Positions 26,601 to 29,600 of a stretch of DNA of 64,000 bases are shown here, in pieces. Numbering within the stretch: position 1 is the first letter of the stretch; each line of letters begins with the position of its first letter. The position numbers were made by a program. The DNA is taken from assembly GCF_003018115.1 (NCBI RefSeq), contig NZ_CP027458.1; one strand, 5' to 3'. This stretch comes from Escherichia coli (GTDB lineage Bacteria; Pseudomonadota; Gammaproteobacteria; Enterobacterales; Enterobacteriaceae).

Positions 26601-29600
26601 AGGAACACCGTTCAGAACACCACCGTTGAAGCCATTCACTTCAACATCCAGGCGGGTCGGCAGAACCGTCAGCAGGTCAAACGGCATGGTTTTTTCCGGC
26701 AGTACGTTGTCACACAGACGGTTCCACCACACCGATACATCCTCGTTACTCCAGAAGCCACACCAGTCACCTCTTTTTGCGGTGAAAAGTACGGTGATGG
26801 TATCCCTGACATCGTCCGGTAATCCTTCCCAGCGACGCTGTCCAGTACCGCTCTGCAGCCAGAGTTCATGCAGCATCAGGCAGTTTTGTTCATCCAGCAG
26901 TACACCGTTCTGCAGGTGTGTCAGCCAGCGGGTGAACGCGATATTCTCCGGCGATACAACGCCACGCCCGGCAGCCGTCAGTCCGGGGCATGGTTCAAAC
27001 CGCACATCTTCAGTGGTCTGCAGAAGTCCGGCACTTCCGGCCAGAAACAGCTGAATACCTTCATTTATGGCGCGGCGATAAAACGGTGTGACGGCACCAC
27101 TGGCCAGTCGTTTAATCTCAGCGATCTGTGCCGGTTCACCAGAAAAATGCATACGGTTACTGCACCAGTTTGGCATGGGAATTCTCCTCTCACATGCGGC
27201 CTCCATCAGGCCGTGCCGGCACGTTAACCGGGCTGCATACGAATGCAGGTGCGGCCCCGAAGCCGCAGCGCGTGGAGGAGGAACGACGAAACGTGACCGG
27301 GTGAGGAGGCCGGCGACAGCGACACACTTGCATCGGATGCAGCCCGGTTAACGTGCCGGCACGGCCTGGGTAACCAGGTATTTTGTCCACAGAACCGTGC
27401 ACAAAATGCTGTGGATAAGCTGGACACAGCACTCCACAGCAGGCATACAGCCACACCCTCAGAGAATTGATCGTTTTTTAGTCAGAACAATGACATTTGA
27501 CTGTGTGCGGATTCAGTTATTAGAATACTGTATATGCATACAGCAAAAAAGAGAAGGGAGATGAGAACATGATCCGCATTGAAATTCTTTTCGACCGCCA
27601 GAGCACAAAAAACCTCAAATCAGGCACACTTCAGGCGCTACAGAATGAAATCGAACAACGTCTGAAACCACACTACCCGGAAATCTGGCTGCGTATAGAC
27701 CAGGGCAGCGCCCCGTCTCTATCTGTCACAGGAGCCCGCAACGACAAGGATAAAGAACGTATCCTGTCTCTGCTGGAAGAAATCTGGCAGGACGACAGCT
27801 GGCTGCCTGCAGCATGAGTACCGTTTATCACCGTCCGGCTGACCCTTCAGGCGATGACAGTTACGTGCGACCGTTGTTTGCCGATCGTTGCCAGGCCGGT
27901 TTTCCTTCGCCTGCCACGGATTATGCTGAGCAGGAACTGGATCTGAACAGCTATTGCATCAGCAGACCTGCAGCCACCTTCTTTCTGCGCGCCAGCGGTG
28001 AATCGATGAACCAGGCTGGCGTGCAGAATGGTGATCTGCTGGTAGTGGACAGGGCCGAAAAACCACAACACGGGGACATCGTTATCGCTGAGATCGACGG
28101 TGAGTTCACCGTCAAACGACTGCGGTTGCGCCCACGCCCGGCACTGGAGCCGGTTTCAGACAGCCCGGAGTTCCGCACACTGTATCCGGAAAACATCTGT
28201 ATTTTTGGTGTTGTCACTCACGTGATACACAGGACGCGGGAGTTACGCTGATGTTTGCATTGGCTGATATCAACAGTTTCTACGCCTCATGTGAAAAAGT
28301 TTTCCGCCCGGACCTTCGCAACGAACCGGTCATCGTACTCAGCAATAACGATGGCTGTGTGATCGCGCGCAGCCCGGAGGCAAAAGCCCTTGGCATCAGA
28401 ATGGGGCAGCCCAGGTTTCAGGTGAGACAAATGCGCCTGGAGAAGAAAATACATGTATTTTCCAGCAATTATGCGCTGTACCACAGCATGAGCCAACGGG
28501 TTATGGCTGTTCTGGAGTCGCTTTCTCCCGCAGTTGAGCCCTACTCAATTGATGAAATGTTCATTGATTTGCGGGGGATAAATCATTGCATCTCTCCGGA
28601 GGTTTTTGGTCATCAGCTCAGGGAACTGGTAAAGAGCTGGACAGGACTCACCATGGGGGTGGGCATTGCGCCTACAAAAACGCTGGCTAAAAGTGCACAG
28701 TGGGCAACAAAGCAATGGCCACAGTTTTCCGGTGTGGTCGCGCTGACGGCAGAAAACCGTAATCGGATCTTGAAGCTACTGGGGCTGCAGCCAGTTGGTG
28801 AGGTCTGGGGAGTAGGACGCAGACTGACGGAAAAGCTGAATGCGCTGGGTATTAACACAGCACTGCAACTGGCGCAGGCTAACACGGCATTCATCCGGAA
28901 AAACTTCAGCATCATTCTTGAGCGTACGGTACGCGAACTCAACGGCGAGTCCTGCATATCCCTGGAAGAAGCACCACCGGCAAAACAGCAGATTGTCTGT
29001 AGTCGCAGTTTTGGTGAACGAATCACAGACAAAAATGCCATGCACCAGGCTGTTGTTCAGTATGCAGAGCGGGCCGCTGAGAAACTACGTGGGGAGCGTC
29101 AGTATTGTCGGCAGGTGACGACATTTGTACGGACATCCCCCTTTGCAGTAAAAGAACCCTGTTACAGCAATGCCGCTGTGGAAAAGCTTTCATTGCCACA
29201 CAGGACAGCCGGGACATTATTGCCGCCGCATGCAGAGCCTTAAACCATGTCTGGCGTGAAGGGTACCGCTATATGAAGGCAGGAGTCATGCTGGCTGATT
29301 TCACACCATCGGGTATAGCGCAGACGGGATTATTTGATGAAATCCAGCCCCGTAAAAACAGTGAAAAGTTAATGAAAACACTCGATGAACTGAACCTGTC
29401 GGGAAAAGGGAAAGTGTGGTTTGCGGGGCGAGGATCCGCCCCTGAATGGCAAATGAAACGGGAAATGCTATCGCCTTCGTATACAACACAATGGACTGAG
29501 ATCCCCATTGCTTCATTCTGATATATCAGAATAATTTTTTCATTTTAAGACGCACATCATTCATTGCCTCCTGCACCGAATCAGTAGCAGAAGGAGGCAT

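Follow-up and report, generated by a model that had tools for sequence, protein, structure and literature searches.

A single-base deletion shared by hundreds of plasmids very probably makes impB of an enterohemolysin IncFIB plasmid an inherited pseudogene

Plasmids of the IncI1 type (Inc, incompatibility group; TP110, R64 and the ColIb type) and of the IncK/B/O types carry impCAB operons in which the genes stand in the same order as in the locus described here, with overlapping starts and stops and a LexA box, and in which impB encodes an uninterrupted protein of 423/424 amino acids that is annotated as 'Y-family DNA polymerase'. The chromosomal umuDC operon of Escherichia coli (DNA polymerase V, Pol V) belongs to the same family and likewise combines a self-cleaving UmuD-like protein with a Y-family catalytic subunit under LexA; umuDC is intact and lacks a dinI-like first gene, and ImpB is its plasmid paralogue. 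We analysed a stretch of 64,000 nucleotides (the window) of E. coli contig NZ_CP027458.1 (assembly GCF_003018115.1), which is part of an enterohemolysin (ehxCABD) IncFIB plasmid of Shiga toxin-producing E. coli (STEC). Its imp operon differs from those above in that impB carries a 1-bp deletion and additional nonsynonymous changes. We conclude with high confidence that impB on this plasmid is a true, vertically inherited pseudogene that has probably been drifting since the loss of a single C.

Frame 0 of impB is open from 28251 to a stop at 29241-29243 on the plus strand, and a second frame, -1 relative to it, is open from 29105 to 29521. When compared with the UmuC subfamily model PRK03609, the 330-amino-acid open reading frame (ORF) at 28251-29243 matched positions 1-317 of 422 (584 bits, cutoff 431) and the translation of 29192-29521 matched positions 315-421 (180.5 bits), so the two pieces of impB abut at the lesion. 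We placed the lesion by alignment with three intact alleles, L002, L003 (IncF) and L004 (IncI-gamma/K1), each a gene of 1272 nt annotated as 'Y-family DNA polymerase'. The intact alleles have TTGCCCACACAGG and the window has TTGCCACACAGG, so that codon 316 (29196-29198) is short of one C, with CC at 29196-29197 in place of CCC. The 5' part of the gene consists of 316 native codons, 14 out-of-frame codons (HRTAGTLLPPHAEP) and a stop, and the 3' part (29199-29521, plus strand, -1 frame) holds native residues 317-423, with the end of IMS_C and DUF4113. The original prediction, made from the window's sequence, had reported a single-base frameshift near 29196-29200, with the impB frame ending at 29243 and the conserved C terminus continuing in another frame to 29521; the lesion lies inside that interval, and the comparison with impB alleles of related plasmids that it had proposed gave one missing C relative to all three intact alleles. 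It had also anticipated that one extra base would restore a protein of UmuC length. Putting one C back yields a 423-residue ImpB that differs from the intact alleles at 9/423 residues and has the full Pfam architecture (IMS 6-149, IMS_HHH 176-201, IMS_C 245-360 and DUF4113 372-420).

The domain limits were taken from Pfam because a search for solved structures by sequence retrieved relatives of the Pol IV (DinB) type alone, and none of Pol V or ImpB. By these limits the frameshift is situated about 60% into the little-finger domain (IMS_C), upstream of DUF4113. The 330-residue product retains the catalytic domain (IMS) as well as the HHH motif and is without the last ~45 residues of the little finger and the whole of DUF4113. 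Across its two frames, impB matches the UmuC subfamily over its whole length. There is no single reading frame of about 422 codons, the 1-bp deletion being followed by a stop after 330 codons, and because the frame is interrupted we file impB as a pseudogene of the UmuC/ImpB/MucB family and not as a functional member.

The same allele is widespread. A 61-mer centred on the deletion occurs exactly in 275 of the about 3465 PLSDB plasmids that carry the segment and in 301 records of complete E. coli genomes, and the exact 330-residue product is encoded on 774 public contigs. Carriers of the 61-mer include many STEC plasmids as well as pUTI89 (NC_007941), pUM146 and pECSF1 of strain SE15, and the deletion is identical in pO86A1 (NC_008460, from PLSDB). 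The records are independent and were made with different technologies, and early published plasmids (pUTI89, pECSF1, pO86A1) stand alongside later assemblies. The corresponding intact 62-mer is exact in 1367 PLSDB plasmids. Three variants, 28868A, 29108T and 29190T, are common to 13/13 aligned deletion alleles, and 29471A is present in all 10 deletion alleles that extend that far; none of the four occurs in the three intact alleles. These linked variants fit one haplotype and one deletion event. Over impB a single synonymous site separates the window from L001 and L023, which are close relatives, and all seven amino acid changes private to the STEC sub-lineage are present in the window. The gene is therefore disrupted relative to intact close homologues, and the disruption is shared by descent. 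In every E. coli record examined, the RefSeq annotation (Prokaryotic Genome Annotation Pipeline, PGAP) calls it a 'umuC' pseudogene, 'frameshifted'.

We counted substitutions by parsimony on 16 alleles, comprising 13 of the ~300 deletion alleles and the three intact ones (977 nonsynonymous and 292 synonymous sites). Within the deletion clade there were 11 nonsynonymous changes (W55R, S81N, Q126L, V221I, C235S, A241V, D262N, A330V, P359T, Q383L and T396S) and 4 synonymous changes, giving a ratio of nonsynonymous to synonymous rates (dN/dS) of about 0.82, which is compatible with neutrality (binomial p = 0.76). Outside the clade the ratio of counts was 3:6 and dN/dS about 0.15, with fewer nonsynonymous changes than expected under neutrality (p = 0.0065). 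The difference in dN/dS between the clade and the rest is only suggestive. The window itself carries W55R, which replaces the tryptophan of a GQPWF stretch found in every intact allele examined and presumably present in E. coli UmuC as well. P359T changes a QPGLF stretch of impB; this QxGLF/QPGLF stretch, which we take to align with the beta-clamp-binding motif of UmuC, lies within the part lost by truncation.

Further lesions have accumulated on the deletion allele, in the form of insertions of the insertion sequence IS21, 5' truncation and promoter loss. IS21 cuts the frameshifted impB after about nt 1022 in 3/8 sampled plasmids (L016, L019 and L021), where PGAP describes the gene as 'frameshifted; incomplete; missing C-terminus', and one sampled plasmid retains the impB 3' part only, beside RepFIB. 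In pUTI89 (L013, NC_007941.1), unrelated DNA from the side of a ClbS/DfsB gene has taken the place of the imp promoter and of the LexA box as far as a breakpoint within the box, so that its left half is gone; pUTI89 is the sole such plasmid among those aligned.

Four points weigh against reading impB as a decayed pseudogene: the deletion in this isolate is known from the assembly consensus and not from reads; the contrast between substitutions inside and outside the clade has a Fisher p of 0.09 on 24 substitutions and ignores recombination and transition bias; the presumed loss of function rests on domain loss; and every full-length carrier sampled has open impC and impA frames, so that part of the imp operon could still be used. 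The first of these touches the possibility, raised in the original prediction, that the isolate truly reads CCC and has an intact impB, a one-base change in a short homopolymer being the commonest kind of consensus error. We consider this to have next to no chance of being right and exclude it because the identical allele is present in hundreds of independent records on one linked haplotype. The deletion was always found on the combination of variants that the three intact alleles lack, and neither random nor systematic error would follow a haplotype; the 1367 records with an exact intact sequence read CCC without trouble, so the site is not hard to sequence, and the near identity of the window to L001 and L023 over impB, including all seven STEC sub-lineage changes, argues in the same direction. 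The frameshift itself and the option of a genuine pseudogene, which the original prediction had also listed, are supported. Its remaining option, that programmed -1 ribosomal frameshifting or transcriptional slippage restores some full-length ImpB and so regulates a dangerous polymerase, is in our view extremely improbable. The two frames do overlap over 29105-29243, where a -1 shift would join them, and the C-terminal frame in the window is still open to the native stop. Within this overlap, however, we found no slippery heptamer of the form X XXY YYZ in frame 0 and no long homopolymer, the longest runs being C5 and A4. A single string resembles such a heptamer, CCCTTTG at 29139; its phase is wrong and intact alleles have it too. 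The 102 nt downstream folded no better than shuffled sequences (minimum free energy -28.4 kcal/mol vs. a shuffle mean of -30.1, z = +0.50). Nor is the arrangement in two frames conserved, since the relatives with the intact 62-mer have a single, uninterrupted ORF; all four clade-internal substitutions 3' of the shift are nonsynonymous (A330V, P359T, Q383L and T396S), and carriers tolerate IS21 in the 3' part of impB. We also considered and rejected a phase-variable homopolymer switch or slippage: the tract is merely CC vs. CCC, and in the 16 alleles the two states are tied to different haplotypes.

The openness of impC and impA bears on two further readings. The split gene might still act, through the 330-residue N-terminal fragment and/or a separately started C-terminal fragment (from TTG at 29105 or ATG at 29273), or impC and impA might be kept for an SOS-modulating role that is independent of the polymerase. 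In favour of these readings, neither the window nor its STEC relatives show damage to the promoter, LexA box, impC or impA, and gene callers do call a 138-amino-acid DUF4113 ORF. We nevertheless regard such residual function as improbable, and our data lend no support to a role without the polymerase: substitutions look neutral in both halves of impB, those in impA and impC within the clade (8 nonsynonymous, 5 synonymous) reveal no clear constraint, the possible start sites also exist in intact genes and hence are not evolved features, and the promoter loss in pUTI89 argues against selection for expression of the operon. A more specific version, to which we likewise give little credence, holds that the STEC lineage keeps an SOS-induced impC-impA module, possibly with the 330-residue catalytic-core fragment, whose two proteins, one a RecA modulator of the DinI type and the other UmuD-like, tune the SOS response or checkpoint of the host or pair with chromosomal UmuC. 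If true, this would account for a decaying impB next to an intact promoter, LexA box and pair of small ORFs.

Under the favoured reading of impB as an inherited pseudogene, a single replication-slippage event would have removed one C from the CCC run at codon 316 in an ancestral IncF-borne imp operon, and vertical descent, together with exchange of this backbone segment, would then have spread the allele. Translation would run into 14 wrong codons and a stop, giving a protein of 330 amino acids. The gene would have drifted neutrally after the deletion and been damaged further in some carriers. The C-terminal region of UmuC is tied to interactions with the processivity clamp and with UmuD' and RecA. 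With the C-terminal region missing and the DNA-binding little finger incomplete, the plasmid would provide no functional Pol V-like polymerase.

The remainder of the operon is undamaged in the window, as the original prediction had said of the LexA box, impC and impA. impC, impA and the UmuC-like ORF lie head to tail on the plus strand behind a LexA box, and the UmuD-like gene upstream of impB scores above its cutoff, the arrangement expected of an operon of the UmuC/ImpB/MucB type. A putative sigma-70-like promoter (TTGACT, 18 nt, TAGAAT; 27497-27526, plus strand) matches the consensus at 10/12 positions, and its location directly 5' of the LexA box suggests that it drives the operon. The LexA box itself, CTGTATATGCATACAG (27528-27543, plus strand), fits the pattern CTGT-N8-ACAG and is located between the -10 hexamer and impC. 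This pattern has two matches in the window against 0.77 expected; the second, CTGTATTTCACAACAG at 43859-43874, is inside a 705-amino-acid ORF (42190-44307, minus strand) and is probably a chance occurrence, given that expectation. impC (27569-27817, plus strand) is an intact ORF of 82 amino acids that is DinI-like by the NCBIfam DinI model (E = 4.6e-11, below the equivalog cutoff); its counterpart in relatives is annotated as 'DinI-like family protein'. impA (27814-28251, plus strand), an intact ORF of 145 amino acids that overlaps both impC and impB, encodes a UmuD-like autoproteolytic subunit (PRK10276 UmuD subfamily, 144.6 bits, cutoff 110), and its translation, read directly, contains an A-G cleavage-site motif, the serine of SGESM and the lysine of TVKRL.

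Several other features were observed upstream of impC. A run of A residues at 27544-27549, in the 5' untranslated region after the LexA box and before the ribosome-binding site of impC, is polymorphic in length: the window has 6 A, L001 and L023 have 5, and the remaining aligned plasmids have 4. Upstream of the imp promoter, in intergenic DNA, TGTGGATAA at 27410-27418 is a perfect match to the DnaA-box consensus on the reverse strand and is kept in all aligned imp-bearing relatives but pUTI89, in which the region is replaced. Farther upstream there is a 36-nt inverted repeat (arms at 27207-27242 and 27333-27368, 97% complementary and 90 nt apart), directly upstream of the start of a DUF1281 ORF (27206, minus strand). 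The stretch spanning this repeat is cleanly missing from the close relative NZ_CP027581.1 (L023), and the repeat could be a small mobile or hairpin element.

The imp operon is flanked on the plasmid by the leading region (psiAB, ssb and antirestriction genes) on one side and by parM/stbB, ccdAB and RepFIB on the other. The same backbone in L023, viewed over a 47-kb context, has many further features with a frameshifted or partial annotation, among them ssb-like fragments, a DNA methylase, an integrase and an ISL3 transposase, and upstream of its DUF1281 gene it holds a group II intron (ltrA).

The frameshift in impB is already known in the sense that it is recorded in the RefSeq annotation of hundreds of plasmids; a search of the literature available to us found no paper that explicitly describes it. 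One candidate account (PMC6927977) concerned only an impB::cat marker plasmid. A pangenome study lists the halves of impB as separate genes, a UmuC and a DUF4113 protein (PMC10783064), and the shared frameshift explains why two such 'genes' from this locus appear in pangenome lists. The pseudogene is real but ordinary and has little significance beyond annotation. In practice, the IncF plasmids of this group, from ehx STEC and from pUTI89-like extraintestinal pathogenic E. coli, should not be counted as having an extra functional mutagenic polymerase; IncI, IncK and IncB/O plasmids, by contrast, have intact impB. The deletion and its linked single-nucleotide polymorphisms also make a convenient lineage marker for this segment of the IncF backbone.

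Compared with intact alleles, impB in the window is 98.7% identical. Most of the IncI, IncK and IncB/O plasmids sampled have an intact gene; one plasmid of the IncI1/B/O type (L011, NZ_CP049844.1) has three separate gap openings in impB relative to the intact allele and no annotated coding sequence, which may reflect independent inactivation or long-read consensus errors. The umuC pseudogenes of pUTI89, pECSF1, pO86A1 and ehx STEC plasmids have the identical deletion at this C run, and their linked haplotype is that of the window; the closest relatives (e.g., NZ_CP028121.1 and NZ_CP027581.1) are 99.9% identical to it over the operon. pUTI89 and pO86A1 lack the seven STEC-lineage amino acid changes of the window, and the window keeps the regulatory region; in pUTI89 the promoter is gone, together with half of the LexA box. 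IncFIB plasmids of the ColV type (L007-L010 and L012) contain a remnant of the same gene that shares the 29190 T variant with the window. This remnant, in contrast, consists of impB nt 750-1218 only, with an 11-bp deletion and an intact CCC run, and it lies beside RepFIB and IS1/sitA with no impC or impA. It is an independent kind of decay, so that impB has been lost at least twice in IncF backbones.
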